Positions 3,558-34,805 of a DNA stretch of 35,905 bases are shown one piece after another. The notes under the pieces are model-generated. The model made no database searches and was not told where the DNA came from. It saw only the letters and a program-made list of their open reading frames with translations. The DNA lies in the NCBI GenBank assembly GCA_012514915.1, contig JAAYZJ010000318.1, positions 1 to 35,905 on the forward strand, written 5' to 3'. A program made the translations under genes and the position numbers. Source of the DNA: Lentisphaerota bacterium. GTDB taxonomy: Bacteria > Verrucomicrobiota > Kiritimatiellia > RFP12 > JAAYLN01. Each line of letters starts with the position of its first letter. The first letter of the stretch is position 1.

Positions 3558-3587
3558 TTGACCAAGTGTCTGCCCCTTCCCTATAAT
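3558..3587 (+). promoter_or_regulatory. Near-consensus sigma70-type promoter (TTGACC-N18-TATAAT)
   Basis: TTGACC at 3558-3563 and TATAAT at 3582-3587. The GTG start of the next ORF (3595) lies 7 nt after the -10, with no purine-rich SD in between. Confidence 0.5.
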
Positions 3588-3594
3588 TTCGCTT

Positions 3595-4674: not shown

Positions 4675-5410
4675 CCCCGTCCGACTCGGCGTGAACATCG
4701 ACCATGTCGCCACCCTGCGCCAGGCACGCCGATCTGATTATCCCGACATTGTCGAGGCCGCCCGGATCTGCGAGGAGGCCGGCGCCTGCGGCATCACGGT
4801 TCATCTTCGCGAGGATCGGCGGCATATCCAGGACGACGACGTGATCCGCCTCCGGCGGGCGATCGCGACCCGCCTGAACCTCGAAATGGCCAACGCCCCC
4901 GATGTGCTGGCGCGCGCGGTCGAGGTTCGTCCGCACGAGGCCTGCCTCGTGCCGGAGCACCGCGAGGAATTGACGACCGAGGGCGGCCTCGATGCCGACG
5001 GGAACCGTCAGGCCCTCGCCGCGACGATCCGCGCCCTGCAGGATGTCGGCACGGAGGTCAGTCTCTTCATCGATCCCGAGCCCCGGCAGATCGAGGCGGC
5101 CGCCGCGCTCGGCGCGACGCACATCGAGCTGCACACCGGCACCTATTGCCGCCTGCACGGTGCCCGCCAGGCGGAGGAGCTCGCGCGCCTGACCGAGGCG
5201 GCGCAACTGGCCCACCAGGCCGGACTGATCGTGAACGCCGGGCATGGCTTGACGCTCGCCAATGTGGGCCCCGTCTGCCGCATCCCGCGGATGCACGTGT
5301 TGAACATCGGGCACAGCATCGTGTGCCACGCCGTCTTCGTCGGCCTGGCCGCGGCCACGCGCGCCATGCTCGCGGCCATGGCCGCCGCGCCGCAGGCAGA
5401 ACCGTCATGA
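4667..5410 (+). CDS. pdxJ: Pyridoxine 5'-phosphate synthase
   Basis: 247 aa. The N-terminus [15 protein letters not shown] and [13 protein letters not shown] are hallmark PdxJ motifs. Full-length collinearity with PdxJ. Confidence 0.95.
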
Positions 5411-6993: not shown

Positions 6994-7043
6994 AGGAACG
7001 GCCGCCGGCCAGGCCCGCGGCCGACATACAAGCAGGAGACACC

Positions 7044-10953: not shown

Positions 10954-11005
10954 AGGGGTTGGCTGCGGCCGGACGCGAGGCGTCCGGGGGTTCCCGTGCC
11001 GCGGT

Positions 11006-12316
11006 TCACGCCGGATCGCCGCGCGCGGCGAGCAGGGCGGCGCCGCGGCAGGCCGGTTCACGACAGGCGGCGGCGACAATGTCGATGCCGAGGCGCTCGC
11101 GCTTGAGTTGCAGCCAGAAGGGGCTGTGCGCGCCGCCTCCGGTCGCGACCACCCGGCCGGGGCGGCCCTCGGGGCAGAGGCGGTCAAGCAGGAGGCCGAG
11201 GGTGTCGGCGGAGGCCGTCATGATCGCCCGGGCGTAGTGTCCGTGCCCATGGTCGGGTTGGCGGTTGTCAAAGCCGGCGAGGCCGGGCTGGAGATGCGCC
11301 TGCGGGCGGGCCGTCAGGCCGTCGCAGTCGGGAGGAACGGCGGCGGCCAGCCGGTCAAGTTCTTGAAAGGTGAGTTCCGGGGCGTACGCGCGCCGATACC
11401 ATTCAAGCACCCCGGCGCCGTTGCCGTCGAAGACCAGCAGCGCGTAGGCGTTGGGTTCGGTTCCGGGGAGATGACAGACGCCCGCGCGCGGACGGTAGTC
11501 GTCCGACAGCCCCACGCAGGCCAGCACGGTTCCGGTCGATTCGCTCACGGGGGCGCAGGCCCCCAGCCCCGCCCCAAGCGCGGCCGCATGGTGATCGAGT
11601 GTTCCGGCCGACACCCTCGCGCCGGACGGAAGTCCCAGCAGGCTGCCGCCCGCCTCCGTGCATCCTCCGACCACCGTGCCGGGACGCAGCGGGGTGGCCA
11701 ACTGCGCCAGGCTCAGGCCGCAGGCCGTGACGGCGTCCGGCCACCAGGCCAGCGCGCGCTGGTCGAGCAGCCCCAGGAGCGAGGCGGTTCCAGCATCCCC
11801 CTGGAAGCGCCCGGTCAGGGCGAAGGAAAGGTAGTCGGAAATCGTCAGGACACGAACCGTCCGACGCCAGAGGGCGGGATCGTGCCGCTGCATCCAGACC
11901 AGCTTCGAGACGGCGGCATGACGGCCGAGGCCGCAGCCAAGGCCGGTCGTGGCCACGAAGTCGGGGCGGTCGGCCAGGCCGCGCACGACGTCGGGCACTT
12001 CCGGCGCGCGGGTGTCGGTCCAGAGGATCAGCGGCGTCAGTGGGTTCGCGGCCCCGTCGAGCAGCACATAACTGTTGGCCTGCGACGACCAGGAGAGCGC
12101 GGAGATCTCGTCGACGCGGGCACACGCGCCCTCCAGGGCCTGCTCCAATCCCTGGCGCAGCGTCTGCCAGAAGGCGTCGACCGCGACCTCCGCCCGGTTG
12201 TCGCCGGATCGAACCGGCACCTCGACCCGTCCGATTCCGCGCAGATGCAGGTCGGGATCGAACAGCCCGAGTTTGAAATAACTGGTTCCGAGGTCGATGC
12301 CAAGCCGATAGTTCAT
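11006..12316 (-). CDS. FGGY-family carbohydrate kinase (xylulokinase-like)
   Basis: Start at ATG 12316 (MNYRLGIDLGTSYFK.., the canonical FGGY N-terminal phosphate-1 motif). The 143-codon N-terminal extension of ORF 11006-12745 overlaps the upstream gene and is rejected. The C-terminal VATGGGAHSPFWLQLKRE motif is FGGY_C-like. Confidence 0.8.
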   Translation of the reverse strand: MNYRLGIDLGTSYFKLGLFDPDLHLRGIGRVEVPVRSGDNRAEVAVDAFWQTLRQGLEQALEGACARVDEISALSWSSQANSYVLLDGAANPLTPLILWTDTRAPEVPDVVRGLADRPDFVATTGLGCGLGRHAAVSKLVWMQRHDPALWRRTVRVLTISDYLSFALTGRFQGDAGTASLLGLLDQRALAWWPDAVTACGLSLAQLATPLRPGTVVGGCTEAGGSLLGLPSGARVSAGTLDHHAAALGAGLGACAPVSESTGTVLACVGLSDDYRPRAGVCHLPGTEPNAYALLVFDGNGAGVLEWYRRAYAPELTFQELDRLAAAVPPDCDGLTARPQAHLQPGLAGFDNRQPDHGHGHYARAIMTASADTLGLLLDRLCPEGRPGRVVATGGGAHSPFWLQLKRERLGIDIVAAACREPACRGAALLAARGDPA

Positions 12317-14988: not shown

Positions 14989-17145
14989 TCACGGCGTGAA
15001 CATCTGGAATTCGGCGGGGGCGAGGGTGATCGTGGTCGTCGTCTCGCGGTGGTGGAGCCGGATCGTGTGCGGCCGGTCGAAGTCGATGTTGTAGAGGCAG
15101 ATTTCGCCCTGCGCAGGGAAGTGCGTGAACGCGACATGGTCGCAGGCTGCGCCCGGCTCGATCCCGTCGTCGGTGATGAAGGTCTCGCCGCGCGTCTCGC
15201 GGGCGATCCTGCGGTAGACCGCGTGGATCAGGCCGAACCGGTTGTCACGGGTCGCGCTGGGCGCGCTGTCGTCCGCCAGGGCGCCGGGATACTCCCACAT
15301 GTTGAGGAAGTAGACCGTGCCCCTGCCCAGCCGGTGCCGCAGGAGGAGGGGCATGAACTGCTCGTCCTCGACGGCGACGACCTCGACCCCCGGCTGCATC
15401 TCGATGCACCCCAGGTGCGTCATGCAGATGCCGAACTTGCGGTGCGGCGAAACGCCCAGCGGCCGTTCTTTACCTGGCGTGACGGCCCAGTAGAACTGTT
15501 TGCCGCGGCCCGTCACCTTCACGCCGCAGAGCTCCGAGAAGTCGCCGCCGCGGATCAGCTCGTCGGCGCCGTAGCTCGTGAAGTTGCGGCGGGTGTTGGT
15601 GGAGAGGTGCGGGATCGAGACAAAAAGCGTCCCGCCCGCACGGACATAGGCGACGAGGGCATCGTACTGCCCCTCGGTGCAGGTGTTCCAGCCGGTGAAG
15701 AGCAACGCCGCGTAGTGTTGCGCGAGGAACGAGGGGTCGGGATCGACCGCGAAGCTCACGATGTCCGTGATGCCGTAGGGCGTGCCGGAGAGGAAGGGAT
15801 TCTTGAAGGGCCCCAGCACCGGAGGACGCGGGTAGAAGGTGTCCGCGAAGATCTCCCAGCCCCGCTCCGGGGCGGCGTGGAACCAGCGGGCGTCCTTGTC
15901 GGCCTGATCGTACTGCCCCGCGATGACCGCGTTGGGATGGAAGCCGCCCGGACCGGCCAGATCGAGGTTCCCCTTGATCGCCGCCACGCGCGCGGCCGGC
16001 TGGCCGGCCGGCGTGCCGCGGGTCTTCAGGAAATCGTAGAAGTCGGAGATGCGGCGGCGGTACTCGCGGCAGACGGGCGAATCGTAGTTCAAGTTCGGGT
16101 AGTGCCGGCGCGCGGCCTCGACATGCGGCGCGCTCAAGTGCGGATCGTTGACGTGGATGTTCCCCAGGCTGAGCTTCGGCACCTGGTGCATCGGCGTGTC
16201 CTCGATGTGGTCGCTCTGCTGCCACCAGTTGCCGCTCTCCACCAGCAGGAGCTTGCAGCCGGCCATGTACTTCATGTAGAGCGAGGCGGTCAGCAACGGC
16301 ATCCGGTGCGGGCAGGAGTACGGCAGCATGCCGTAGTGCTCGTGCGCCAGATCGGTCCCCCAGATCGGCAGGTTGAACTGCCGGTGGAGACCGCGCGACA
16401 GGGCCGAGGCGATGTTGAAGTGCGGCACGGCAAAATCCTCGACGGCGGGGATCTCGATACCGCCGATGATCTCGTAGTCCAGCGTGGCGATGCCGCCCGT
16501 GACCATCAGGCGCGACCAGCCGGCCGCCTTGCGACGCTGCACGCACGACCGCACGCTCGCGAGGAAGTTGGCGGCCAACTGGCGCAGGTCGCCGGCCGTT
16601 TTCCGCGCCAGCGCCAGCTCGGGATCCTCCGTTTCGTTGAGGCGGAAGGTGAACACCTCGCCGACGTTGCACCCCAGGAAGTTGTCCAGGTCGGGCTGCA
16701 TCCGGGCGAGCTGGCTCGGATCGGCGTCGGTGTAGATCGTCATCATCGCCAGCCCGAGCTCGCGGGCCTGGCGGAGCATGCGGACAAGCCCGGCGCCCAG
16801 ACGCTCCGGGTGCTTGGCGATCTCGTCCCAGTCCTGCGGCGTGAGGAAACGGCCGTTGGCCCAGTCGGGGCGCGGCACCTCGAGTCCGAGCTCGTCCAGC
16901 GCCAGGTAGTCGGCCATGGCCAGCAGGCTCTGCTGGGTGGCGCCCCCGTCCCAGATCGCCACCAGGTTTCCCTGGTTTTCGCGCACTGTGCGGTCGATGT
17001 ACCAGGCGGCATCGTGATCCTCCGAAACCCAGCTCGTGTAGTAGGGCCCCGAGGTCTGGAAGATCGTGTCGCCGCGGTGCAGGTAGACCGGTGTTCCCAG
17101 AAAGGTTCCGCAGGCGGGCAGGGTGATCGGCGCGGGGGTGGACAT
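14989..17145 (-). CDS. Hypothetical cytoplasmic protein (about 718 aa), possibly a glycoside-hydrolase-like three-domain protein
   Basis: The ORF runs 14989-17169. I prefer the second ATG at 17145 (MSTPAPI..) because a GGAG lies about 7 nt upstream and this avoids an 8-nt overlap with mutM. No signal peptide. The middle region (ALLFTGWN.., GGTLFVSIPH) resembles the glutamine-amidotransferase-like middle domain of GH42 enzymes. Family not recognised. Confidence 0.55.
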   Translation of the reverse strand: MSTPAPITLPACGTFLGTPVYLHRGDTIFQTSGPYYTSWVSEDHDAAWYIDRTVRENQGNLVAIWDGGATQQSLLAMADYLALDELGLEVPRPDWANGRFLTPQDWDEIAKHPERLGAGLVRMLRQARELGLAMMTIYTDADPSQLARMQPDLDNFLGCNVGEVFTFRLNETEDPELALARKTAGDLRQLAANFLASVRSCVQRRKAAGWSRLMVTGGIATLDYEIIGGIEIPAVEDFAVPHFNIASALSRGLHRQFNLPIWGTDLAHEHYGMLPYSCPHRMPLLTASLYMKYMAGCKLLLVESGNWWQQSDHIEDTPMHQVPKLSLGNIHVNDPHLSAPHVEAARRHYPNLNYDSPVCREYRRRISDFYDFLKTRGTPAGQPAARVAAIKGNLDLAGPGGFHPNAVIAGQYDQADKDARWFHAAPERGWEIFADTFYPRPPVLGPFKNPFLSGTPYGITDIVSFAVDPDPSFLAQHYAALLFTGWNTCTEGQYDALVAYVRAGGTLFVSIPHLSTNTRRNFTSYGADELIRGGDFSELCGVKVTGRGKQFYWAVTPGKERPLGVSPHRKFGICMTHLGCIEMQPGVEVVAVEDEQFMPLLLRHRLGRGTVYFLNMWEYPGALADDSAPSATRDNRFGLIHAVYRRIARETRGETFITDDGIEPGAACDHVAFTHFPAQGEICLYNIDFDRPHTIRLHHRETTTTITLAPAEFQMFTP

Positions 17146-17161
17146 GCGTGGCTCCGTTCTG

Positions 17162-17998
17162 TCAGTCATGGTTCAGGCGCTGGCACGCAGGACAGATGTG
17201 CGTGCCGCGCTGGGCGACAACCAGCCGCGCGAGCGTGGTTCCGCAGCGGGGACACGGCTCGCCGTCGCGGCGGAAGACATTGAGGCGGTCGGCGTGGCGG
17301 CCGCGCCGCCCCGCCACACTGTAGAAATTGGACTGGCCGCTCCCCAGCGTCGTGCCGCGGTCGCGCACGGCGCGGGCGAGGATTTGGCGGATGGCTCCGT
17401 GCAGCGCCCGCGCCTCGTCGGCCGTCAGGCTGCTCGCGGGCCGCCCGGGATGCACGCCGGCCTGCCACAGCGACTCGTCGACGTAGATATTGCCCAGCCC
17501 GGCCACCAGCCGCTGGTCGAGCAACAGCGGCTTGATCGCCCGCCCGCGCCGCGACAGCTCCCGGGCGAAGTCCGGCAGCTTGAACGCCGGACCGAGGGGT
17601 TCCGGGCCGAGATCCGCCAGCGGATCCGACGCCGGCGTGCCGAGCGCGAAGCGACCGAACTTGCGGGTGTCGTTAAACACGAGCAGACGCCCGTCGTCCA
17701 GCGCCAGACGCACATGATCGTGCGGCCCGCGAGGCTCGTCGCCCGCCGCGAAGCGGAGTTTGCCGGTCATGCGCAGGTGGAGGAGGACGCGCCGGCCGCC
17801 GTCGAGATCGAGGACGATGTACTTGCCCCGGCGTCCAACCGCGAGAATCGTTGCGCCGGTCAGCACGCGCCGCACCGCGACGGGATCGGGGCCGAAGGTG
17901 CGCGGCCAGCGCAGCTCGACCGCGACGATCCTGGCCCCGCACAGCCCGCCGGCGCGCAGGCCGCGGACGACGGTCTCGACTTCGGGCAGTTCAGGCAT
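17162..17998 (-). CDS. mutM: Formamidopyrimidine-DNA glycosylase
   Basis: 278 aa. The N-terminal MPELPEVE catalytic motif, the H2TH region and the C-terminal zinc finger CPRCGTTLARLVVAQRGTHICPACQ are present. Confidence 0.92.
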   Translation of the reverse strand: MPELPEVETVVRGLRAGGLCGARIVAVELRWPRTFGPDPVAVRRVLTGATILAVGRRGKYIVLDLDGGRRVLLHLRMTGKLRFAAGDEPRGPHDHVRLALDDGRLLVFNDTRKFGRFALGTPASDPLADLGPEPLGPAFKLPDFARELSRRGRAIKPLLLDQRLVAGLGNIYVDESLWQAGVHPGRPASSLTADEARALHGAIRQILARAVRDRGTTLGSGQSNFYSVAGRRGRHADRLNVFRRDGEPCPRCGTTLARLVVAQRGTHICPACQRLNHD

Positions 17999-22152: not shown

Positions 22153-23307
22153 ATGCGGCGGGTACCCATCAGATTGCGCGCAGGCGGAGGCCGGCAGCCG
22201 TTGCGGCGGCTGGCCGTCGGCCTGCTGCTACTGTCGGAACCGCTCGCCGCAGCCGACGATTTCATCGTCCGAACCACGCCGGAGTGGCGGGTGCATGAAT
22301 TCGCCGTCCTCCGCCTGGCACGCGCCGTGCACCGCGAACTCGTCGAGACGCTCGGGCTCCCCTCCCCCATGAGCCATGGCCCGGTCGAAATCGAACTGGG
22401 ACTGGGCGAGCCGCCGCCGGACGGCGCCGGGCACGCCGTCGTACGCGGCCCCAGCGGCGTGTTCGGGCTGGTCCGCCTGGGCGACCCGCGGGTGCTTGAC
22501 CGCGACGAGACGGCTTTCGCCCTGGCGGCCGCCCTGGTGCGCGCGGCGATCCACAACCGGGCCCGCGGCCCGGAGGCTGTGACCGAACCGCCCGTCTGGT
22601 TCATCCGGGGCGTGGCCCGGCAGGCCGACCCGAGCCTGCGCGGCGCCGACTTCGAGGCGGCCTACGCGCGCTGGTCGGGCGGGCGCCTTCCCGGCGCGGC
22701 CGAATTGTGGCAGGCCAGGCGCTCGCCCGCCGCCCAGCACCTCGACGTGGCCTCGCAGTTGGCGGCCTGGTGCGCCTCCCGTCCGGACCGCCAGCAGCGC
22801 TGGCAGGCCTGGTGCGAGCACCTGGCGCAGGGAGGCGCCTGGACCCCCGGGGCGCTGGCGTCCATCTGGTTCGACGACGACGACCTGGCCCGCCTCGACG
22901 CGGCCTGGGACGCGTGGCTCGTCGTCCGCACGCGCCGCGTGTTCGACCCCGGCACGACGCCGGCGGGCGTCAGGCGGCGTTTCCAGTCGCAATTATTGCT
23001 CTATCCCTGGGAATGTGTTATTTATATCCCTGCCGTGGCGCTGGGTGGAACCCCGCTGGTCTGGTGCATCGAAAACCCCGACAGTCCCGGGGTGCGGCAG
23101 GCCGCCGCCGCCAAGTCGCGGCACCTGCTGCTGCAGGGCGCCGGCCGCGACCCCGCCTTCAGGGAAATGGCGGCAGGCTACGCCGACGTGATGCGGCGGC
23201 TGGCGGCGGGCGCCTCCCGCCGCGAGCTGCGGTCGCGCTGGCGGCAGGCCGAGGCGCAGCGGCTGGCCCTCGAGGCCGAACGGACGGCGCCACCAAGGAA
23301 CGAATAA
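22153..23307 (+). CDS. Hypothetical exported protein, Trp/Arg/Ala-rich
   Basis: 384 aa. SD GGGAG at 22142-22146. N-terminal signal-like segment RRLAVGLLLLSEPLAAADD. No recognisable catalytic motif. Contains an AT-rich rare-codon patch at about 22985-23030. Confidence 0.5.
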   Translation: MRRVPIRLRAGGGRQPLRRLAVGLLLLSEPLAAADDFIVRTTPEWRVHEFAVLRLARAVHRELVETLGLPSPMSHGPVEIELGLGEPPPDGAGHAVVRGPSGVFGLVRLGDPRVLDRDETAFALAAALVRAAIHNRARGPEAVTEPPVWFIRGVARQADPSLRGADFEAAYARWSGGRLPGAAELWQARRSPAAQHLDVASQLAAWCASRPDRQQRWQAWCEHLAQGGAWTPGALASIWFDDDDLARLDAAWDAWLVVRTRRVFDPGTTPAGVRRRFQSQLLLYPWECVIYIPAVALGGTPLVWCIENPDSPGVRQAAAAKSRHLLLQGAGRDPAFREMAAGYADVMRRLAAGASRRELRSRWRQAEAQRLALEAERTAPPRNE

Positions 23308-23313
23308 CCGGGC

Positions 23314-24735
23314 ATGAGTGCAAGCGATAACAAGCGGAAGACCCTGGTAGGGGCGATCCACCCCGATGTGCTGGCCTTCACGGTCGGGCGCGATCCCGAG
23401 CTCGATCTGCACCTGCTCGACTGGGACTGCCTCGGCAGCGCCGCGCACGTCACCATGCTCAGCCGCATGCGCATCCAGCCAACCCTCTTCACGGCCGTCG
23501 AGCGCGCGGCCGTCGTCGCCGAGCTCGCCGCCATCATGCGGGCGGGCCGGGCCGGCGCCTTCGCCATCTCCCAGGAGGATCAGGACGTCCATCTGGCCGT
23601 CGAACGCCGCCTGACCGAGAAGCTGGGCGACCTCGGCAAACGCATCCACACCGGCCGCAGCCGCAACGACCAGGTGGCCGTCGACCTGCGCCTGCATGCC
23701 CGTGACAACCTGCTGGGCGTGTGCGACGAGTGCGTCGCCCTCGCGCGCGCGCTGCTCGCGTTCGCGCGCCGCCACCGCGACGTTCCCATGGTCGGCCGCA
23801 CGCACCTCCAGCCCGCCATGCCCAGCTCGGTCGGCCTGTGGGCCTCGGGCTACGCCGAAGGGCTGCTCGACGACCTGCTGACGGTCGAGGCCGCCTACGC
23901 CTACGCCGACCGCTGCCCCCTCGGCTCGGCGGCCGGCTACGGCGTGCCGCTGCCCATCGACCGCCGGCTGACGGCCGACCTGCTCGGTTTCGCGGCGCCG
24001 ATCCACAATGTCTTCCACGCCAGCAACACCCGCGGCAAGTGCGAGTCGATCGTGCTCGGCGCCCTGGCGCAGATCATGCTCACCTCGTCGCGGCTCGCCG
24101 AGGATTTGATTCTCTTCACGATGCCCGAGTTCGGCTACTTCGCCCTGCCTCCCGAGTTGTGCACCGGCAGCAGCATCATGCCCCAGAAGTACAATCCCGA
24201 TGTGCTCGAACTGATCCGCGCCAAGACGGCGCGCGTCCTCGGGCACCAGACGGCGGTCGGCGCCATCCTCAAGGCGATGCCCGGTGGCTACAACCGCGAT
24301 CTGCAGGAAACCAAGGAGCTCTACCTGGATGGCGTCGCCGTCACGCGCGCCACCCTGCGGATCCTCCACCTGATGACGCAGGGGCTGACGGTCCGTCCCG
24401 ACCGCCTGCGCGCCGGTTTCGGTCCCGGCGTGTTCGCGACCGACCGCGCCCTCGAGCTGGTGGCGTCCGGCGTCCCCTTCCGCGAGGCCTACAGTCGCGT
24501 GCGGGGCAGCCTCGACACCCTGGCCGGCGCCGACCCCGATGCCGCCATCGCCGCCAAACGCCACCTGGGCGGCACGGCCGGGCTCGATCTCGACGGGCTG
24601 GCCGCGCGCGCCGAGGCCATCCGCCGGGAGACGCGGCGCCGGCGCCGGATCGCCCACGCCGCTTTTTCCCGGCTGCTGCACGTCGACTTCCAAACGCTCA
24701 CGCCCCGCGCGGGCCCACGTCAACAGGGAGCCTAA
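23314..24735 (+). CDS. argH: Argininosuccinate lyase
   Basis: 473 aa. Fumarate-lyase superfamily signature GSSIMPQKYNPD, plus TGRSRNDQV and HLQPAMP. Collinear with ArgH. Confidence 0.95.
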   Translation: MSASDNKRKTLVGAIHPDVLAFTVGRDPELDLHLLDWDCLGSAAHVTMLSRMRIQPTLFTAVERAAVVAELAAIMRAGRAGAFAISQEDQDVHLAVERRLTEKLGDLGKRIHTGRSRNDQVAVDLRLHARDNLLGVCDECVALARALLAFARRHRDVPMVGRTHLQPAMPSSVGLWASGYAEGLLDDLLTVEAAYAYADRCPLGSAAGYGVPLPIDRRLTADLLGFAAPIHNVFHASNTRGKCESIVLGALAQIMLTSSRLAEDLILFTMPEFGYFALPPELCTGSSIMPQKYNPDVLELIRAKTARVLGHQTAVGAILKAMPGGYNRDLQETKELYLDGVAVTRATLRILHLMTQGLTVRPDRLRAGFGPGVFATDRALELVASGVPFREAYSRVRGSLDTLAGADPDAAIAAKRHLGGTAGLDLDGLAARAEAIRRETRRRRRIAHAAFSRLLHVDFQTLTPRAGPRQQGA

Positions 24736-24740: not shown

Positions 24741-25619
24741 ATGCTCAAGCCACGATTCCTCCTCGCCGCCGCCGCCGTCCTGATCCTGACGACGGGGGGC
24801 CCGGCCCCACTGCGCGCGCAAACGGCGGCGCCCCCCGCCGCGGCGGAGACGGGAACCCCCGCCCTCGCCGCACCGCCGGCGCCGCTCCCCGTGCCACTTC
24901 CCCGCGCCGAGGCGCCCGTCATCGAGCGCGCCGAGGCGCCAGCACCGCGCGGCCCGGCGGGCGAGACCGCCACGCGCACGTTTGGCATGTCGTGGCGCGA
25001 GGCCTGGCACTACGGCGGCACAATCATGTGGTTCATCCTCGCGCTATCGATCATCGGCGGGGCCCTCAGCATCTACCTGTTCATCATCCTGCGGCCGGCC
25101 CAGATCGCCCCGCGGGCGCTGCGCAGCGAGTTGCGCGACCGGCTCCGCGACAACGATCTGAACGCGGCACGCCGCGCCTGCGAGAGCCGGGCCTGCCCCC
25201 TCTCCGCCGTCACCCTCGCGGCGCTGGACTACATCCGCGGCATCCCCGAGCCCGATGTCCCCCTGCTGAGGGACGTCGTCGAATCCGAGGGGAGCCGCCA
25301 GGCCGAGGATCTGCAGTCGCAGACGCAGTTCCTGCTCGACCTGTCGGTCATCACGCCGATGCTCGGGCTGCTCGGCACCGTGCTCGGCATGCTCAAAGCC
25401 TTCGGCTCGATCGCGCAGGACTACACGGCCGCCAAGCCCGTCATCCTGGCGCAGGGCGTCTCCCAGGCGATCATCACGACCATCTTCGGCCTGGCCATCG
25501 CCATCCCCTGCATGCTCCTGTACGCCTATTTCCGGCGGCGCGCGGTCCGCATGATCGCCCTTCTTGAAACGGCCGCCGCCGACGTGCTGGCGACCCTGGC
25601 CGGGAGGCGTTCCCCATGA
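24741..25619 (+). CDS. MotA/TolQ/ExbB-family proton channel, with signal peptide and a Pro/Ala-rich N-terminal extension
   Basis: Start at ATG 24741 (SD GGGAG at 24726-24730), 5 nt after the argH stop. Three TM helices. The motif ITPMLGLLGTVLGML and the AQGVSQAIITTIFGLAIAIP helix are hallmark ExbB/TolQ features. Residues 1-85 are a signal peptide plus an A/P-rich stretch. Confidence 0.85.
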   Translation: MLKPRFLLAAAAVLILTTGGPAPLRAQTAAPPAAAETGTPALAAPPAPLPVPLPRAEAPVIERAEAPAPRGPAGETATRTFGMSWREAWHYGGTIMWFILALSIIGGALSIYLFIILRPAQIAPRALRSELRDRLRDNDLNAARRACESRACPLSAVTLAALDYIRGIPEPDVPLLRDVVESEGSRQAEDLQSQTQFLLDLSVITPMLGLLGTVLGMLKAFGSIAQDYTAAKPVILAQGVSQAIITTIFGLAIAIPCMLLYAYFRRRAVRMIALLETAAADVLATLAGRRSP

Positions 25620-26071
25620 GATTCCAGTCCCGCGGCGGCGCGCGCCTCCCCGAGGTCCAGTTCACCTCGATGATCGACATCGTCTTCCTGCTGCTGTGCT
25701 TCTTCATCACGACGTCGGTGTTCTCGCAGTGGGAATACGAAGTCGATGTGGTGCTGCCCACGGCCCAGTCGGGCAAGATGCCCGACCGGCTGCCCGGCGA
25801 GGTGATCATCAATCTGACGCGCGACGGCCGCACGATCATCAACCAGCAGGTGCTCGACGCCGTCCAGCTCAAGGATCGCCTGACACGCCTCGCCCGCTTT
25901 TTCCCGGGGCAGCCCATCGTGCTGCGCGCCGACCGGCTCACCGCCTATGAGAACGTCGTCGGCGTGATCGACCTCTGCCGCCAGGCCGACATCTGGAACA
26001 TCTCCTTTGCCACCAGCGGCGACGAGGATGGCGGCGGTCAAGCGGCCACAACGGGAGGCGCGGCCAGGTGA
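25616..26071 (+). CDS. ExbD/TolR-family biopolymer transport protein
   Basis: 151 aa. ATGA overlap with the exbB-like gene. A single TM carries the conserved Asp (SMIDIVFLLLCFF; Asp codon at 25676-25678). The periplasmic domain has the pattern VIINLTRDG .. PIVLRADR .. Y..VV.VID. Confidence 0.85.
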   Translation: MRFQSRGGARLPEVQFTSMIDIVFLLLCFFITTSVFSQWEYEVDVVLPTAQSGKMPDRLPGEVIINLTRDGRTIINQQVLDAVQLKDRLTRLARFFPGQPIVLRADRLTAYENVVGVIDLCRQADIWNISFATSGDEDGGGQAATTGGAAR

Positions 26072-28488
26072 CATTGGCCCTCCCAAGCCCTGCTGCGGCG
26101 CGGCGGCGCGGGCGTCTCGCAGTCGCCGTTCTGGCCTGCGGATGCGCGGCGGCGTTCGCGGCGGCGCGCGCCGCCGACGATGCGATCGCGCCGGGCGACC
26201 GCAAGCAACTGGCCGACGGGCTCTTCAGCCGCGGCCTGTACGCGCTGGCGCTGCCGGAATACCAGGCGCTGGCAGGAATCCGGCCGCCCGTGCCGCCGCT
26301 CGACGAGATCCTCTTCCGCCTCGGGGAGTGCCAGCGGCGGCTCGAGCAGCCCGCCGAGGCGGAGAGCAGCTACCGGCGACTGGCGGCGGAATGCCCGGCC
26401 AGCCCCTTGCGCGACCGCGCCGTCCTCATGCGCGGCCTGATCGTTCTGGAGATGGGTCGCCCCGCGATCGCCGCCGAACTGCTGGAATCGCTGCTGTCCA
26501 CCAACGCCGCGCCCGATGTGGCGGGCGCCGCGCGCTACCACGCCGGGCAGGCCCGCGAGCAGGCGGGGGATCTCGCCCGCGCGCAGGAGCACTATCAGGC
26601 TCTGCGTGTGCAGGCGCCCGCCCATGAACTCGCCGTCTACGCGGGCCTGCGGCTGGCCGCCCTCCGTGCGCGGGAGCAGACGCCCGCCGCGACGGCCGCC
26701 GCCCTCGCCATCTACCAGCAGATTGCCGACCAGCCTCCCGACGCCCGCGCGGGCGCCGAGGCGCTGTTCCAGGCGGCCACGCTCGCCGACCAGTCGGGCG
26801 ACGGCGAGACTGCCGCCCGCCTGTACCGCCGGCTCGCCGAGCGCTACCCCCTCGACAGCCGCACCGCCGAGGCGGCCCGTCCGGCCGCGTGGGCCCATCT
26901 GCGCACCGGCCGCACGGCCGATGCGCTCGCCTACGCCACCCGTGCCCTGGCCGAGGCCTCCACCCTCACGCCCGCCGAGCGCGCCGAATGGCACTACCTC
27001 CAGGCCAACAGCCAGCGGCTGCTCGAGCAGCGGGACGAGGCCGTGGCGAGCTACGACGCCCTCCTCCTGGTTGACCCCCGCTCGTCCTTCGCGCCGGCCG
27101 CCCGCTTCGAGCGGCTGGTGGCGCTGTTCAAGAGCGGCGCCTACGAGCGGGTGCTCAAGGACGCCGACGCCTTCACCGATCCCCCGCCCAACCAGCGGCC
27201 CGACCTGCTCTGGATGCAGGCCAACGCCGCCGAGGCGCTCAAGGATGCCGCGCGCGCCGTGCAGTTCTACCGGATGCTGGCCGAGCAGGCCCCGCAAAGC
27301 CCCCTGGCGGCCGACGCCACCTACCGCCTCGCCTACCAGCTCCAGCAGCAGCAAGCCTGGGCCGAGGCCTCGCGCCGCTATCTCGAACTCGCCGACCGCT
27401 GGCCGACGAACGCGCTTGCACCCCGTGCCCTGTTCGCTTCGGGACTCTGCCTGGCGCAGGCGGGACAACCCGACGGCGCCCTGCGCGACTGGCGCCGCCT
27501 CCTGACCACCTTTCCCACGCACGAGACGGTTCCCGACGCGCTGTTTCAAAAGGGGCTGGAGGAAATCCGCCTGGGCCAGGACCGCGAGGCCGGCACCACG
27601 CTTGACGGGCTGCTGCGCGAACACGACGGCTACGCGCGGCTCGACGAGGCGCGCTTCTGGCGAGCTCACCTCGCCTACGCCGCCCGCGAGTTCGCGCTCG
27701 CCGAGCAGTTCCTCCGCGCCGCCCTGGCCGGCCACCCTCCCGTCGCGGTGCGGCGCGAGGCCGAATTCCTCCTGGGCCTCGTCCTGCAGGCGACCGGGCG
27801 CGACGCCGAAGCGGCCGCCTGTTTCCAACCCCTGCTCCACGCGCCGATCATCGAGAAATTCACGATCGACCGCCTCAGTTGGCTGGCCGAATTTCAATAC
27901 GCGCGCCAGGCGCTGGCCGAGTCGGAGGCGGCGGCGCGGGCCATGCAGGCGCACGCCCCGTCCGACGACTGGCGACAGGCCGCCGCGGCATTGCTCGGCC
28001 GCGCCCTTCAGGGGGCCGGGAAACGGGACGAGGCGATCACCGCCTACCAGCAGGCCCTGGCGACTCCCGCCCGCACCCGCTACGGCGCCGAGGCGGCGCT
28101 GCGTCTGGGCGAGCTCCTGCTCGAGACCGGCCGCGCGGCCGAGGCCGAAGGCCGCCTGCGGGATGCCGCCGAACGAGCCGCGGTTCCCGAACTGCAGGAC
28201 ATCCGCGCGCTGGCCTACGCGGCCTTGGGACAGGCTGCCGAGCGGCGCGGCGACCGCGAGACCGCCATCCGCTACCACATGAGCGTCGCCCTCCTCTTCG
28301 ACGATGCCGACCGGGTGCCCGCCGCCCTCGACCGCGCCGCCACGCTGCTGGCCGAACTCGGCCGCGGGGAAGAGAGCCGGGCCGCCGCGGATGAACTGCT
28401 GACCCGCTACCCCGACGCGCCGCAGGCGGCCCGCTGGCGCGCCGACGCGGCGGCACCGGCCACCCCCCCGGCCGGGGAGGGGCCCTGA
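26068..28488 (+). CDS. Exported or lipoprotein-like tetratricopeptide-repeat protein (806 aa)
   Basis: GTG start overlaps the exbD stop (GTGA at 26068-26071). N-terminal signal sequence RRRGRLAVAVLACGCAAAFAAARA, with a possible lipobox (VLAC). The rest is wall-to-wall TPR-like helical repeats (..A.Y..G.....G....A...Y..L....P.S..A..A). The mirror ORF 26038-28494 is rejected. Confidence 0.75.
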   Translation: MTLALPSPAAARRRGRLAVAVLACGCAAAFAAARAADDAIAPGDRKQLADGLFSRGLYALALPEYQALAGIRPPVPPLDEILFRLGECQRRLEQPAEAESSYRRLAAECPASPLRDRAVLMRGLIVLEMGRPAIAAELLESLLSTNAAPDVAGAARYHAGQAREQAGDLARAQEHYQALRVQAPAHELAVYAGLRLAALRAREQTPAATAAALAIYQQIADQPPDARAGAEALFQAATLADQSGDGETAARLYRRLAERYPLDSRTAEAARPAAWAHLRTGRTADALAYATRALAEASTLTPAERAEWHYLQANSQRLLEQRDEAVASYDALLLVDPRSSFAPAARFERLVALFKSGAYERVLKDADAFTDPPPNQRPDLLWMQANAAEALKDAARAVQFYRMLAEQAPQSPLAADATYRLAYQLQQQQAWAEASRRYLELADRWPTNALAPRALFASGLCLAQAGQPDGALRDWRRLLTTFPTHETVPDALFQKGLEEIRLGQDREAGTTLDGLLREHDGYARLDEARFWRAHLAYAAREFALAEQFLRAALAGHPPVAVRREAEFLLGLVLQATGRDAEAAACFQPLLHAPIIEKFTIDRLSWLAEFQYARQALAESEAAARAMQAHAPSDDWRQAAAALLGRALQGAGKRDEAITAYQQALATPARTRYGAEAALRLGELLLETGRAAEAEGRLRDAAERAAVPELQDIRALAYAALGQAAERRGDRETAIRYHMSVALLFDDADRVPAALDRAATLLAELGRGEESRAAADELLTRYPDAPQAARWRADAAAPATPPAGEGP

Positions 28489-30254
28489 TGCCACCCTATG
28501 CTTCCTTCAGCCCCGACGGGCACGGCGAACGCAGCAACCACCATTCCCTGCTGCTGGCGCTGGCCATCACCGTCTCGTTCATCGCCCATCTGGTGCTGAT
28601 GATGACCATCTCGGACTGGACGTTCGAGCAGGTGCGCATCGTGGCGGCGGTGCCCGATCCGCCCCGCCCACCCCTGCGGGTCGAGCGGATGGAGCGGGAC
28701 CCGCAGCGCGCCCTGGGCAACCCCGAGACGGGGCGTCCCGAGGACGGCGCCGGGGTTGGGGTTCCGCGCGAACAGCTTCATGCGCTGGCCCGCCTGCCCG
28801 ACCCTGCCCTGGTCACGCCGCCCGCCCGCACCCCCGCTTCGCTCGCGGGCACCCTGGTGAACCTGCAGGCGCCGCCGCGGCAGCCCACTGCGCTGGGCTG
28901 GCAGCCCCGCCAGCAGATCGTGGCCATCGTCGACCGGACGGTGAAGGACGACCTGGCGACCCTGCCGCGCCGCGAAATCGCCCGCATCGAGCGGGTCGCG
29001 CGCGCCCCCGACTACGTCCCGGCGGTGGATGTCACCCGCGACCGTTTCGGCGGCGAGGCCGAAGTGCGCCCGCCACCCGCCGCGCAGACCGTCCGGACGG
29101 GCGGCGAAACGCCCGTCGCCGACCCGCCGGCACCCGCCGACGCCGCCATCCGCCTCGACGAGGGGGCCACCCCCGACGCCGCCATCCACCGCTTCGGCGA
29201 GCGGCCTGGCGACGTCAGCGACTACACGGCCATCGACTCGCGCCTGATGGCCCGGATCGAGACGTTTGCCCCCGACGGTCCGGAGGGGCGCCGCTACTTC
29301 CGGCTGAACATCGCCCGGCGAGACGGCGAGACGCTGCCGGTCGTGCCGAAGGACATCATCTTTCTGCAGGACAGCTCGCGCAGCCTCGCCGAGGAGCGCC
29401 TCTACTTCTGCCGGCAGGCGCTCAAGCGCCTGGTCCCGCGACTGAACCCCGGCGACCGCTTCAACATCGCCCGCTTCAGCGACGCGCCGACCTTCTGCTT
29501 CGAGACCTGGACCCCGGTCACGCCGGCGTCGGTCGCCGCCGCCGACGCGTTCATCGACACCATGCGCTCCGAGGGGGAAACCGACGTGTTCGCCTCGGTC
29601 CGCACGCTGCAAAGCCTGCCGCGCGATCCGGCACGGCCCCTGATCGCCGTCGTCATCACCGACGGCCGTGCCACCGCCGGCCTGACGGCAAGCACGGCGA
29701 TCATCGGCGAGTTCTCCAAAATGAACGCCGATGGGTGCTCGGTCTTCGCCCTCGGCACCCACGGCCGCGCGAACGCCTACCTGCTCGACCTGCTCACCTT
29801 CTGCAACCGGGGCGCCTCGACGATCGTCACCAGCGGCCGCTGGGACATCCCCCGCGAGATCGAGGCGCTGGTCGACGGTCTCGCGCGCCCGGTTCTGGGC
29901 AACGTGCGGGTGACGGCCGACCTGGCCTCGCAGGCCGACCTGCAGCCGCTGCCCGCCGCCAACCTGTATGCCGACCGGACGCTCGAGTTCTTCGGCACGA
30001 CCCCGCCCGGCGTGACGAACCTCGTCCTCCAGGTGCGCGGCGAGGGAGGCGCGACCGCCTGCGACGTGATCTTCCAACTCGACCTGGCGGCGGCGCCCGC
30101 GGGGGGCGAGGCGGTGCGGAAGGGATGGGCGCGGCGCAAAATGCACAGCCTGATCGGCGCCTACGCCCGCGAGCCCGGCGAGCCGCTGCTGCGGGAGATG
30201 CGGCAACTGAGCCGCCTGTACAACGTGCCGATCCCCTACCGGGACGAACTCTAA
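28488..30254 (+). CDS. Membrane-anchored von Willebrand factor A (VWA) domain protein with a TonB/TolA-like N-terminal anchor and Pro-rich spacer
   Basis: The ATG at 28488 shares one nt with the TPR gene's TGA (TGATG). The TM helix at residues 20-41 contains S30-x3-H34 (VSFIAHLVL). Residues 55-245 are Pro-rich and low-complexity. The VWA fold spans about 288-460 with a complete MIDAS site (D295-S-S297-R-S299, T365 in GETD, D392 in TDG). The C-terminal beta-rich region resembles VIT/VWA (YfbK-like) tails. Confidence 0.75.
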   Translation: MPPYASFSPDGHGERSNHHSLLLALAITVSFIAHLVLMMTISDWTFEQVRIVAAVPDPPRPPLRVERMERDPQRALGNPETGRPEDGAGVGVPREQLHALARLPDPALVTPPARTPASLAGTLVNLQAPPRQPTALGWQPRQQIVAIVDRTVKDDLATLPRREIARIERVARAPDYVPAVDVTRDRFGGEAEVRPPPAAQTVRTGGETPVADPPAPADAAIRLDEGATPDAAIHRFGERPGDVSDYTAIDSRLMARIETFAPDGPEGRRYFRLNIARRDGETLPVVPKDIIFLQDSSRSLAEERLYFCRQALKRLVPRLNPGDRFNIARFSDAPTFCFETWTPVTPASVAAADAFIDTMRSEGETDVFASVRTLQSLPRDPARPLIAVVITDGRATAGLTASTAIIGEFSKMNADGCSVFALGTHGRANAYLLDLLTFCNRGASTIVTSGRWDIPREIEALVDGLARPVLGNVRVTADLASQADLQPLPAANLYADRTLEFFGTTPPGVTNLVLQVRGEGGATACDVIFQLDLAAAPAGGEAVRKGWARRKMHSLIGAYAREPGEPLLREMRQLSRLYNVPIPYRDEL

Positions 30255-31429: not shown

Positions 31430-32443
31430 TCAGGCGGAAGTCCCAGGGGGCTTGATGCCCTCAGTGATCTCGACCAACTGCGGCTCGCGTCCCCACCAGT
31501 CGTCCAGGATGCGGCGGTAGTCGTCGGGATGCCGACTCGTGCGGATTTGGCGCCAGAGGAACGGGCCATCGACAAACCGCGCATGCAGGTAGCTCCAGAG
31601 CTCCTTGAGCCGGCCGAGGAGCGGGGCCGGGCCGGACAGCTCGTGCGCCGACTGATCGCCGAAGTCGTCGAGAAAGGCGCGCAGCCGCTCGATGGCGACG
31701 GGGCGGGGATCGCCGCGGATCCGGCCGGGCAGAAAGGGATCGGCGATGATCCCACGCCCGATCATCCAGCCCGACACGGCGGGAAAGCGGCGCCGCAGCT
31801 CGGCCAGATCGGCGGCGGTCCGGATGTCGCCATTGTAGCAGACCGGGTGTCGGCAGGCCTGCAGCGCTGCGGCAAAACCGTCGAGGTCGACATGCCCCTC
31901 GTAGCGCTGCCGCGCCGTCCGCGCGTGAATGGTCACCTCGCGCAACGGATAGCCATTCAGCAGGTCCATGCGTTCCAGCAGCAGGCCGGAGCTCTCGATC
32001 CCCAGCCGGACTTTAATCGAGAACCCACCGGGCATCAGCGCGCATCCCGTGTCCAGCATGCGCCGCAGCGCATCGGCATCGCGCAGCAGGCCGGCGCCGC
32101 GCCCCTTCTTGACGATCATCGGCCAGGGACAGCCGGCGTTGAGGTCGCAGCGGGCATAGCCCAGCCCCCGGATGGCCAGCAGCAGCGTCCGGAGTTCGGT
32201 GGACGACTTGCCGATGACCTGCGGCACCAGCGCCAGTGCCTGGTTGCGGGCCGGCTCGATGTCCGTCAAATGGGTTGCCTTGATGCGCACGCCGGCGACG
32301 GTGGTGAGAAACGGGGAGACGGCGCCGTCCAGATGTCCGAAATGGCGGGTAAGACATTGGCGGAAGGTGAGGCCGGTGACACCCCGCAGGGGTGCCAGCC
32401 ACAGGGTCTGCGGGCTCGGCGGCATGGAGACGGGCCTGGTCAC
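31430..32443 (-). CDS. dus: tRNA-dihydrouridine synthase
   Basis: 337 aa. LAPLRGVT, the NAGCP catalytic-Cys motif, HARTA..Y.G and MIGRG are Dus-family hallmarks. The GTG start at 32443 overlaps the ftsZ TGA (GTGA). An alternative ATG is at 32425. Confidence 0.85.
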   Translation of the reverse strand: MTRPVSMPPSPQTLWLAPLRGVTGLTFRQCLTRHFGHLDGAVSPFLTTVAGVRIKATHLTDIEPARNQALALVPQVIGKSSTELRTLLLAIRGLGYARCDLNAGCPWPMIVKKGRGAGLLRDADALRRMLDTGCALMPGGFSIKVRLGIESSGLLLERMDLLNGYPLREVTIHARTARQRYEGHVDLDGFAAALQACRHPVCYNGDIRTAADLAELRRRFPAVSGWMIGRGIIADPFLPGRIRGDPRPVAIERLRAFLDDFGDQSAHELSGPAPLLGRLKELWSYLHARFVDGPFLWRQIRTSRHPDDYRRILDDWWGREPQLVEITEGIKPPGTSA

Positions 32444-33606
32444 CGATCCAGCACGATCCCCAGGCGGAGATAGGTGGGGCGGTCGAGATCCTCGCCGTTG
32501 ATCAGCGTCGCCTCGACATCCTTGAAGCGTCCGCGTCCCTGCAGGCGGCCGCCGGTTCTGCCGCGCGGGCGGCGCGCGGCAGGCCGCAGATCGCCGGCGA
32601 GGCTTCCCCCCGCCGCGTCGAACGTCTCCTCCGCCGCCGGCTCCGGCAGGCGCGCCCCCGGCTGCCGCGGCCCGTCGAACAGCAGCGCGACGAGGTGGAT
32701 GGAGCCGGCATAACGCTCGTCAAGCACGGTTCCCATGCGCCATTCGCATCCCCGCGCCAAGGCGGCCTGCATGTGCTTGGAAATCTCCGACAGCTCGGCG
32801 AGGCGCAGGTCGCCGCCGGCCAGCACGCCCAGGGTGATGGCCTGCACCTCCTGCAACGGTGGCGCCTTCCCGAGCAGCGGACTGCGGCACAGCCGGGCGA
32901 CGGCCTCCGTGGCGCGCGCGGCGCCGGCGGCGGAGGCCACGGCCAGGCGGCACCGCCCCCTCCCCTGCGCCAGCACGGCCAGCAGCGACTCGGCATCCAG
33001 CGCAATGAACCCGGGCGTCGTGACCAGCCGCCAGAAGAGGGTGAGCGCCGCGCTGAAAACCGCTTCGGCCTGCGGCATGGCGTCCGCCAGCGTCTCGTGG
33101 GCGCCGGCGACGGCGTAAAGCTGATCCAGCGGGAGGACCACGAGGCCGTCGCTGGCCTCTTCGATCAGCGGCAGCGCCCGCTCCGCCTGCGTCAGGCGCT
33201 CGCGCCCCTCGAAGGCGAAGGGGAGGGTTGCCAGGCAGAGGGTATGGGCGCCGGCATTGCGCAGGGTGTTCAGAACCAGGGGGGTGGCGCCATTGCCGAC
33301 CCCGCCGCCGAGGGCCGTCACGACGACGGCCAGCCGCACGCCGGCCAGGGCCGCGGCGACCGCCTCGGCATCGTCCTGGGCCGCCGACCGTCCCTTGACC
33401 GGATCCCCGCCCGTTCCGTGCCCGTCGAACCGCTTGGCCCCGAGAATCATGCAGCGCATGTTGCCGATGCCGCGGGTGGCGACGGCGTCGCTGTCAAACC
33501 CGATGGCCGCCAGTTCGCCGTCGAAGGTCCGCACGGCCGCCGAAGCCAGGCGGCAGCCGCCGCCGCCGACCCCGACAAGCATCATCGAAACGATTGCGTC
33601 GTTCAT
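32440..33606 (-). CDS. ftsZ: Cell division protein FtsZ (divergent)
   Basis: Start at ATG 33606 (MNDAIVSMMLVGVGGGG..), overlapping the ftsA TGA (ATGA). The 212 upstream codons of ORF 32440-34242 lie inside ftsA and are rejected. Collinear with the FtsZ core and in the correct dcw position after ftsA. The C-terminal peptide EDLDRPTYLRLGI resembles the conserved FtsA-binding tail. The signature reads GGGVGNG instead of GGGTG[ST]G. Confidence 0.8.
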   Translation of the reverse strand: MNDAIVSMMLVGVGGGGCRLASAAVRTFDGELAAIGFDSDAVATRGIGNMRCMILGAKRFDGHGTGGDPVKGRSAAQDDAEAVAAALAGVRLAVVVTALGGGVGNGATPLVLNTLRNAGAHTLCLATLPFAFEGRERLTQAERALPLIEEASDGLVVLPLDQLYAVAGAHETLADAMPQAEAVFSAALTLFWRLVTTPGFIALDAESLLAVLAQGRGRCRLAVASAAGAARATEAVARLCRSPLLGKAPPLQEVQAITLGVLAGGDLRLAELSEISKHMQAALARGCEWRMGTVLDERYAGSIHLVALLFDGPRQPGARLPEPAAEETFDAAGGSLAGDLRPAARRPRGRTGGRLQGRGRFKDVEATLINGEDLDRPTYLRLGIVLDR

Positions 33607-34805
33607 CGCCTGAAAAACCCCTGGATAAATTCCTTGAAGGGACGGATGATCCCCGTTTCCTGATAAGTCTTGAAGCCGTAGAGGACCAGGCCGGCGACGG
33701 TCGCGTAGGCGGCGGGATTCTCGACGGCATCGAGACCCGACACGTTGCAGGGCTCGCCGATCTGGCAGGGGACGCCGAAGATCGCACGCCCCAGTTCCGT
33801 CAGTCCGGGCATGGCCGCTCCCCCGCCGGTGAAGACCACGCCCGCGCCCAGCTTGGACAGCGCGCCGGCCTCCAGCAGGGCGCTCCGCACCAGGCGCAGG
33901 GTCTCCGCCAGGCGGGCGTTGATCACGACATGAAACGCCTTCAGGCTGATGCTGCGCTCCTGGAAACCCAGATCCTGCGGAATGGCCAGCCGCTTCAGTC
34001 CGGTCGCGGCGCCGACCAGCGCGTGGCCGTCCGACCGCTTGAGCTCCTCGGCGCGGGCCGTCGGCAGGTTGAAGGCCTGCGTAAGATCGTTGGTGACATG
34101 GTCGCCGCCCACTCCGAACGAGCCGGCGCAGGCGATCACGTTGTCGGCGTAGGCCAGGTAGCTGGTGGTGCCCCCGCCAAGGTCGATCACCACCACGCCC
34201 GCGCGCTTCTGCTCCGTCGTCAGCGTCGCCAGTGCGGCGCACAACCCGCTGAAGACGACATCATCGACATTGAGCTCGACCGACTGCACGACCTTGCGGA
34301 GGTTGTCGATGCGGTTGCGCAGGGCGTGGATCACCAGCATGTCGAGCGACAACTGCGCGCCATGCAGCCCCTCGGGCTTCATGATGCCCGTCTGGTCATC
34401 GAGCCCGAACGACTGGGTCACCGTGTGCATGATGTCGCGGTCGGACGGCAGGTTGACGGCCTGCGCGAGCTCGATGACCTCCTCGACATCCTCGTGCGAG
34501 ACGATCTGGTCGCGCGCGCGCACGGGAACCGATCCCCGGTTGACCTTCGACTCGATGTGCCCCCCGCTCGCGGCCAGCAGCAGCCGGCCGACATCGACCT
34601 CGCTCTCCTCGGAGGCCTGCTGCACGGCGCGCACGACACCGACCTTGGCAAGTTCGACATCGATGATTTGCCCCTTGCGGACGCCGGTTGTCTTGTACAC
34701 GCCGCGTCCGGTGATCGTCACGCGGCGCGCGTCGTCCATTTCGCCGACCAGCGCGATCGTCTGGGTCGTGCCGATTTCCAAAGCTGCAATGGGAGGTATG
34801 GCCAT
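33603..34805 (-). CDS. ftsA: Cell division protein FtsA
   Basis: 400 aa. Actin-like ATPase motifs (ALEIGTT, VVVIDLGGGTT, GGDHVTNDL, VFTGGGA). C-terminal amphipathic helix FKEFIQGFFRR. Confidence 0.9.
   Translation of the reverse strand: MAIPPIAALEIGTTQTIALVGEMDDARRVTITGRGVYKTTGVRKGQIIDVELAKVGVVRAVQQASEESEVDVGRLLLAASGGHIESKVNRGSVPVRARDQIVSHEDVEEVIELAQAVNLPSDRDIMHTVTQSFGLDDQTGIMKPEGLHGAQLSLDMLVIHALRNRIDNLRKVVQSVELNVDDVVFSGLCAALATLTTEQKRAGVVVIDLGGGTTSYLAYADNVIACAGSFGVGGDHVTNDLTQAFNLPTARAEELKRSDGHALVGAATGLKRLAIPQDLGFQERSISLKAFHVVINARLAETLRLVRSALLEAGALSKLGAGVVFTGGGAAMPGLTELGRAIFGVPCQIGEPCNVSGLDAVENPAAYATVAGLVLYGFKTYQETGIIRPFKEFIQGFFRR

Follow-up and report, generated by a model that had tools for sequence, protein, structure and literature searches.

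What does an ExbB–ExbD motor drive when the arm encoded in its operon ends in a VWA domain? This question is raised by four consecutive genes on a 35,905-nucleotide stretch of DNA from a Lentisphaerota bacterium of the class Kiritimatiellia (GenBank assembly GCA_012514915.1, contig JAAYZJ010000318.1, positions 1 to 35,905; hereafter the window). The genes encode, in order, an ExbB-type protein, an ExbD-type protein, a TPR protein, and a protein with one transmembrane helix near its N-terminus and a C-terminal VWA domain bearing a metal-ion-dependent adhesion site (MIDAS). To our knowledge, TonB and TolA have long been regarded as the sole arms that bring the inner membrane's proton energy to the outer membrane. 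We propose, on the basis of sequence and structure prediction, that the VWA protein is probably (we would say at about 0.7) the force-transmitting arm of a four-gene envelope machine (exbB-exbD-TPR-VWA) driven by the proton-motive force.

The concept of a VWA arm is not new. A literature search for VWA proteins in connection with ExbB or ExbD returned nothing relevant except a 2025 study in Mol Biol Evol (PMC12204202), which described "vWA force transducers" with an SHLS helix beside tolQ, tolR, and TPR genes, having searched next to the motor genes of Tichowtungia aerotolerans (Kiritimatiellota). As judged from sequence, the window protein is of that kind but belongs to a separate, unrelated family. 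A first-pass annotation of the window, made from its letters and open reading frames, had already described the protein as a TonB/TolA-type anchor and spacer grafted onto a VWA domain. The motor-coupled transducer that it envisaged is supported by the results below; the "domain swap" that it spoke of is an evolutionary inference.

A TonB/TolA-type helix joined to an ITIH-like VWA module

The candidate transducer (588 amino acids; 28488..30254, forward strand) was characterized from its open reading frame and by Pfam, AlphaFold2, Foldseek, and an alignment of homologues. Its only transmembrane helix spans residues 20-41 (28545..28610; forward strand), within an AlphaFold2 helix at 17-42 with pLDDT of about 90, and its hydrophobic part, counted from His34, extends from -14 to about +5. 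Translation of the reading frame placed Ser30 and His34 (SFIAH) at 28575..28589 on the forward strand, as first annotated; with Ala26 before them they make up a helix face of the form A-x3-S-x3-H. The S-x3-H spacing is indeed that of E. coli TonB (LLSVCIH) and TolA (AIIISAVLH), and the alignment with the two helices that the first-pass annotation had called for matched the whole face to AIIISAVLH of TolA. In cryo-EM structures of E. coli TonB-ExbBD and TolAQR, these Ser and His residues contact Ser and Trp on the first transmembrane helix (TM1) of ExbB or TolQ (PMC12215075).

Conservation of these residues and of the MIDAS had been named as a test of this reading, and both proved to be conserved. 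A protein search returned 113 matches to the VWA family, each of about 590 residues and 110 of them full length, from metagenome bins of Verrucomicrobiota, Lentisphaerae, and Kiritimatiellia. S-x3-H was present in the helix of all 110 full-length matches, 97 of which had Ala at His-8, while surrounding positions varied among hydrophobic residues; in an alignment of 34 sequences, reaching down to 29% identity, S30 and H34 were invariant. When 1.84 billion representative proteins were searched exhaustively with a profile, 129 more full-length clusters (50% identity) emerged, of which 127 carried the motif, one had Ala-x3-His, and one was an N-terminally truncated gene call. The cluster records looked up read only "VWA domain-containing protein" or "hypothetical" and came from metagenome-assembled genomes, with no cultured host among them. 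In the pooled alignment of 240 sequences, counted where the helix was included, H34 was kept in 239/239 and S30 in 237/239 (two Ala); A26 was found in 212/240, the remainder being mostly small residues. By a rough estimate a lone S-x3-H would turn up by chance in about 1% of single helices; retention at this level while neighbouring helix positions vary means that S30 and H34 are not a chance occurrence. The MIDAS residues D295, S297, S299, T365, and D392 were each kept in at least 238 of the 240 sequences, and D366 in all of them.

Between the helix and the VWA domain lies a linker of about 200 residues. The segment 42-240 is rich in Pro, Ala, and Arg, as had been claimed (15.1%, 14.6%, and 12.6%, respectively). 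The further likeness to the "rigid" spacer of TonB did not hold: AlphaFold2, run on 34 homologues, predicted residues 47-220 to be disordered, and the linker has no (EP)n or (KP)n repeats. Residues 245-588 were predicted to form a confident globular unit (pLDDT >90).

The VWA domain occupies residues 289-463 (29352..29876; forward strand), with Pfam VWA_3 and VWA matches at 289-441. Its MIDAS is complete, as first described, with D295, S297, and S299 in the sequence DSSRS (residues 295-299, 29370-29384), T365 at 29580-29582, and D392 at 29661-29663. Beta strands at residues 468-532 and a helical hairpin at 541-578 follow (29889..30221, forward strand; pLDDT >90). From the AlphaFold2 secondary-structure list, rather than from coordinates, we read these strands and those at 253-277 as probably one beta-sandwich around the VWA domain. 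The tail had been called beta-rich and YfbK- or VIT-like; the first part stood, and the second gave way to an ITIH-like tail. Pfam found VWA_3 and VWA alone in the protein, with no VIT, YfbK C-terminal, or TonB_C domain, and the Pfam and NCBIfam matches, all VWA-type, included neither TolA domain III nor TonB_C.

The resemblance to ITIH proteins was seen in both fold and sequence. The top Foldseek match of the VWA module was ITIH1 (6fpy; E 9e-21, 348 aligned columns), followed at lower rank by ArnB and Sec23-24-type VWA cores, BatB (3ibs), and an aerotolerance-related VWA protein (4jdu). A profile search of PDB sequences matched the module to ITIH4 (E 7.7e-30) and ITIH1 (E 9e-27) with the MIDAS residues aligned to those of ITIH4, which at the level of sequence confirms that the module is truly homologous to both. 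Like ITIH1, ITIH4, and bacterial ITIH-like VWA proteins, the window protein has a MIDAS of the form D-x-S-x-S...T...D and a beta region after the VWA domain; unlike ITIH-type proteins, it lacks a VIT domain and a sorting signal, and a helix of the motor-docking type ties its module to the inner membrane. The VIT domain (PF08487) is borne by the distant matches P0114-P0120. NCBIfam also gave a sub-threshold match to the ITIH-like marine sortase-target family (TIGR03788) at residues 285-566; membership in that family was rejected (85 bits against a cut-off of 552, no VIT, no sorting signal).

A conserved four-gene unit

The VWA gene is the last of four genes on one strand with overlapping stop and start codons. 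The first encodes an ExbB/TolQ-type proton-channel subunit (292 amino acids; 24741..25619; Pfam MotA_ExbB, 5.8e-25), whose pore motifs LGLLGTVLGM and AIITTIFGLAIAIP align with E. coli ExbB, the Thr- and Pro-bearing motifs being kept. In addition to a signal peptide, this ExbB carries about 55 extra residues at its N-terminus, a Pro/Ala-rich periplasmic extension that is common to homologous loci and that HMMER aligned to the "long ExbB" of Serratia (7ajq). The stop of exbB overlaps the start of exbD, which encodes the sole ExbD/TolR-type subunit of the operon (151 amino acids; 25616..26071; Pfam ExbD, 1.1e-25); its transmembrane motif SMIDIVFLLL aligns with FIDVMLVLL of E. coli, and the Asp is kept. 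Residues of the proton path are retained in both motor genes. The third gene encodes a periplasmic TPR protein (806 amino acids; 26068..28488) with CpoB/YbgF-like repeats. It scored above the cut-off of TIGR02795 (tol_pal_ybgF, 1.2e-45) in six stretches, has about six CpoB-like units, and it matched several Pfam TPR families; signal peptides were found at the start of this protein and its homologues. Its stop codon shares bases with the ATG of the VWA gene (TGATG).

To follow this arrangement across genomes, one genome per species was scanned with ten of the closer sequences as query, yielding 50 loci, all from metagenome bins of Kiritimatiellia, Lentisphaerae, or Verrucomicrobiota. The exbB-exbD-TPR-VWA string was complete in 35 of the 50, with the TPR gene between exbD and the VWA gene, and six further loci were cut by a contig end within the TPR or exbD gene. 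The four genes were also kept in distant members of the family (33-41% identity; loci L051/L052, L055, L056, and L057), in which the outer context differed. At L051, L055, L056, and L057 the upstream context of ArgH, unknown, and Zn-ribbon genes was replaced and the four genes remained together, so we regard exbB-exbD-TPR-VWA as a unit. The genes for ArgH, a 384-residue protein, and the Zn-ribbon protein were considered as core parts and rejected, because the module persists without them.

Proposed mechanism

In the mechanism that we propose, the helix of the VWA protein would dock on the outside of an ExbB5-ExbD2 motor in the manner of TonB and TolA. About 20 residues past the helix, the family shares the pattern P-P-[LVM]-[RHK]-[VLI]-[ED]-x-[VLIM]-x-x-D-P (residues 61-72), which in the window protein reads P61-P-L-R-V-E-R-M68 ... 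D71-P72 (28668..28703, forward strand). From this family pattern we take it to be a candidate motor box, or D-box. The D-box of TonB (QP-ISVTMVT-P) is a strand of alternating hydrophobic and polar residues between prolines, captured by the ExbD dimer (PMC10907165). The candidate has flanking prolines and an alternating pattern as in TonB, and this proline-flanked strand may likewise be captured by the periplasmic ExbD dimer. F131 of the window ExbD aligns with chain residue 132 of E. coli ExbD, the last residue aligned, which corresponds to Leu132 in the D-box pocket provided that chain and protein numbering coincide.

The disordered linker of about 200 residues would then cross the periplasm. 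Two linear motifs within it are more strongly conserved than the candidate D-box, both in predicted disorder: W138-Q-P-R-Q-x-I (28899..28919, forward strand; W138 91%, P140 95%, R141 93%; pLDDT <50) and L-P160-R161-R-x-I-x-x-I-E-R169-V-x-x-A-P-D175 (residues 159-175; 28962..29012, forward strand; P160 90%, R161 99%, R169 96%, D175 98%). We infer from this conservation that residues 138-144 and 159-175 are docking peptides. The obvious candidate for their reader is the neighbouring TPR protein, and they would most plausibly dock on its CpoB-like repeats; CpoB itself binds domain II of TolA. At the far end, the ITIH-type module would use the metal ion in its MIDAS to hold a partner, located in or close to the outer membrane, by an acidic residue, and motor activity would pull on that partner.

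As to what the machine is for, our leading guess is Tol-like maintenance or constriction of the outer membrane rather than nutrient import. The guess is a tentative one, nested within the general mechanism and on its own account less likely right than not. The Tol-like role is pointed to by the CpoB-like partner and by Kiritimatiella glycovorans, which is reported to have tolB-pal and no assignable TolA (PMC12204202). Of the Tol-Pal gene set, the window holds genes scoring below the cut-offs of the TolQ and TolR models, and above that of the CpoB model but in an 806-residue multi-repeat protein. A still more doubtful extension is that the module is the missing TolA equivalent of Kiritimatiellota and related bacteria of the PVC group (Planctomycetes, Verrucomicrobia, Chlamydiae). 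In that event the MIDAS grip would replace beta-strand addition, the partner might be TolB, Pal, or another protein associated with the outer membrane or peptidoglycan, and the TPR protein would read the linker motifs. The module would then be the first bacterial envelope motor with a MIDAS bond under mechanical load.

Several observations weigh against a motor-coupled arm of this design. First, Ser and His occupy about positions 11 and 15 within a hydrophobic stretch some 20-22 residues long, compared with about 5 and 9 in the Tichowtungia proteins and in TonB and TolA; this puts them about six residues farther from the N-terminal end of the helix, and the depth of contact would have to differ. 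Second, the TM1 residues Trp38 and Ser34 of E. coli ExbB are replaced in the family's ExbB by an invariant Tyr and, for the most part, by Ala, respectively. The same TM1 has an invariant Ser farther out, and together these changes hint at a contact with the helix that may have shifted. Third, the remainder of the SHLS motif is missing, His+7 being hydrophobic but variable and His+11 mostly Arg, although the L and S of SHLS are poorly conserved in Ton systems too (PMC12215075). Fourth, one position of the candidate D-box is polar where TonB has a hydrophobic residue. Fifth, the window contains no outer-membrane partner, TolB, or Pal.

Finally, in four lineages the VWA gene was found apart from motor genes, at loci L008, L045, L049, and L053/54: after coaE-rho in L045 and L049 (about 2900-7600), beside clpB in L053/54 (L053, 5574-8983), and downstream of miaA- and radC-like open reading frames, as read from translations, in L008 (1-1720). 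Adjacency to exbBD, which the first-pass annotation had treated as essential, was upheld for the complete strings and the distant members and failed at these loci, all of which keep S-x3-H. The E. coli tonB gene is likewise not linked to exbBD, so the unlinked copies do not refute motor coupling.

Alternative explanations

The alternative that survives best retains the motor and changes the task: the arm would serve Ton-like gating of outer-membrane transporters, or gliding and adhesion of the CglB/Agl-Glt-like kind suggested in PMC12204202, rather than Tol-like maintenance. We consider this a serious contender, though one falling well short of an even chance. ExbB and ExbD score alike against the Exb and Tol models, all under the cut-offs, the N-terminal extension of ExbB recalls the "long ExbB" in the Has system of Serratia, and VWA adhesins act in Myxococcus gliding (PMC12204202). 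However, the protein has no TonB C-terminal domain for strand pairing with a Ton box, the window and the conserved neighbourhood of the module contain no TonB-dependent transporter or gliding gene, and the partner that is conserved is the CpoB-like TPR protein.

It is unlikely that the helix does no more than anchor a passive VWA scaffold or adhesin resembling BatA/BatB in the membrane, in which case Ser and His would be kept for another reason, such as self-association or metal binding, and the link to exbBD would reflect a common process without mechanical coupling. The matches to BatB and the aerotolerance-related protein in the fold search, the homologues that lie away from exbBD, and the depth of Ser and His in the helix, unlike that in TonB and TolA, can all be cited for such a scaffold. 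It leaves unexplained, however, why a polar Ser and a His should be invariant in about 240 sequences amid variable positions, and the four-gene module survives reshuffling of its context. MoxR and DUF58 genes are absent from the window. The window protein does resemble BatA and BatB in being a membrane-anchored bacterial VWA protein, of a kind sometimes found with TPR proteins; it differs in lacking a MoxR/DUF58 operon and in having exbBD as its conserved partners. We know of no BatA or BatB that carries an S-x3-H helix.

Much less probable is an inverted topology, with the N-terminus outside and a cytoplasmic VWA domain regulating the motor from within. The first-pass annotation had named a cytoplasmic VWA domain as the outcome that would count against it. 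For such an orientation one can note that the flanking charges of the window protein alone are not decisive, and that Ser and His would fall in the inner leaflet. Across the family, however, 12-residue flanks anchored on His contain on average 2.6 Lys and Arg before the helix, compared with 1.4 after it (15-residue flanks, 2.3 and 2.0, are indecisive), with an Arg/His pair at the N-terminal boundary of the helix. The TPR partner is exported, as judged by its signal peptide, ITIH-type VWA modules are extracytoplasmic, and a Pro-rich linker of about 200 residues is typical of periplasm-spanning proteins. The charge bias, the exported partner, and the extracytoplasmic homologues together speak for an N-terminus in the cytoplasm and a VWA domain in the periplasm. 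A further argument for periplasmic location, from disulfide bonds, was dropped because C308/C337 and C439/C525 showed no clean co-variation.

The notion that the helix is a stator plug inside the ExbB pentamer in place of ExbD, for which the "TPH-vWA" family of PMC12204202 offers a precedent in likewise coupling VWA domains to TolQ-like pentamers, is scarcely credible and can be set aside, because the helix has no Asp and an exbD with its Asp is always adjacent in the module, S and H being moreover the lateral-docking residues of TonB and TolA.

Relation to known systems

The closest published counterparts are the vWA force transducers of PMC12204202, described as VWA-fold proteins tethered to the inner membrane, in which a motor box and a linker of about 100 residues accompany the SHLS helix (His35); AlphaFold3 models in that study place the helix at the edge of the motor, and Tichowtungia itself has no discernible TolA or TonB. 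The window family shares with them a single helix with S-x3-H, a disordered linker, a proposed motor box, a VWA-fold C-terminus, and a syntenic location beside tolQ-like, tolR-like, and TPR genes in PVC-group bacteria; in both cases the proposal is purely computational. For comparison, the sequence of Tichowtungia transducer 1 was transcribed from the supplement of PMC12204202. It has no detectable sequence similarity to the window protein (BLASTP E 0.8; hhalign probability 10% over a short stretch). The window family has a complete, conserved MIDAS in an ITIH-like module, whereas transducer 1 has no Pfam VWA match. In the window family there is also a single exbD, where the published counterpart has two heterologous tolR genes, and a single transducer in place of a pair of paralogues; the genes run exbB-exbD-TPR-VWA, the TPR protein is CpoB-like and of 806 residues, and Ser and His lie about six residues deeper in the helix. 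By inspection, neither of the transcribed Tichowtungia sequences (transducers 1 and 2) contains D-x-S-x-S; the Pfam scan was of transducer 1. Since the seeds lack a D-x-S-x-S MIDAS, counting the window family in the published class brings that class to at least two VWA lineages that are unrelated. The TPH-vWA family of the same study differs in having an Asp-bearing trans-pore helix without an adjacent tolR or exbD, in contrast to a helix without Asp and an adjacent exbD here.

Compared with the E. coli arms, the window protein shares with TolA, besides the helix face, an adjacent TolQR-like motor and a CpoB-like TPR neighbour; it lacks the TolA C-terminal domain and helical domain II, tolB and pal are not adjacent, and the TPR protein is of 806 residues. 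With TonB it shares the S-x3-H helix, and a Pro-rich linker, and its proline-flanked strand after the helix is a candidate counterpart of the D-box; it differs in having no (EP)n or (KP)n repeats and no TonB_C, with a VWA/MIDAS output in place of Ton-box strand pairing.

Other features of the window

The rest of the window carries housekeeping genes, with an LpxL-like acyltransferase downstream of the module and the ftsQ-ftsA-ftsZ-ddl end of a division gene cluster on the opposite strand; no TonB_C was found in the window. Directly upstream of exbB is an argininosuccinate lyase gene (23314-24735, forward strand), an odd adjacency that persists across loci whose VWA proteins share as little as about 33% identity. 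Upstream of it, 22153-23307 (forward strand) encodes the 384-residue protein, which has a signal-peptide-like N-terminus and no Pfam or NCBIfam match. The order Zn-ribbon, 384-residue protein, ArgH, ExbB is kept in most Kiritimatiellia loci, and the 384-residue protein is absent where the context of the module differs.

Three further reading frames lie on the reverse strand. One (8842-11187) fuses LPG_synthase_TM, of the lysylphosphatidylglycerol-synthase type, with PD40 beta-propeller repeats of the TolB kind. Another (14989-17169; 725 amino acids) looks coding by its codon GC bias (GC3 0.92) and was matched by no Pfam family. The third, the mechanically called ftsZ frame (32440-34242), overlaps ftsA (33603-34805) by about 640 nucleotides; with the tubulin domain starting only at residue 219, the real start of ftsZ must lie well within the listed frame.

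Implications

If the proposed arm is what it appears to be, the motor that serves TonB and TolA would in these bacteria be wired to a metal-ion-dependent, integrin-style grip. The family would be a cleaner test bed for such an arm than the published seed without a MIDAS, because it offers a defined four-gene unit, invariant residues open to mutation (S30, H34, and D295/S297/S299), and at least 129 further clusters. It may also supply a candidate replacement for TolA in those PVC lineages that have tolB and pal without a detectable TolA.

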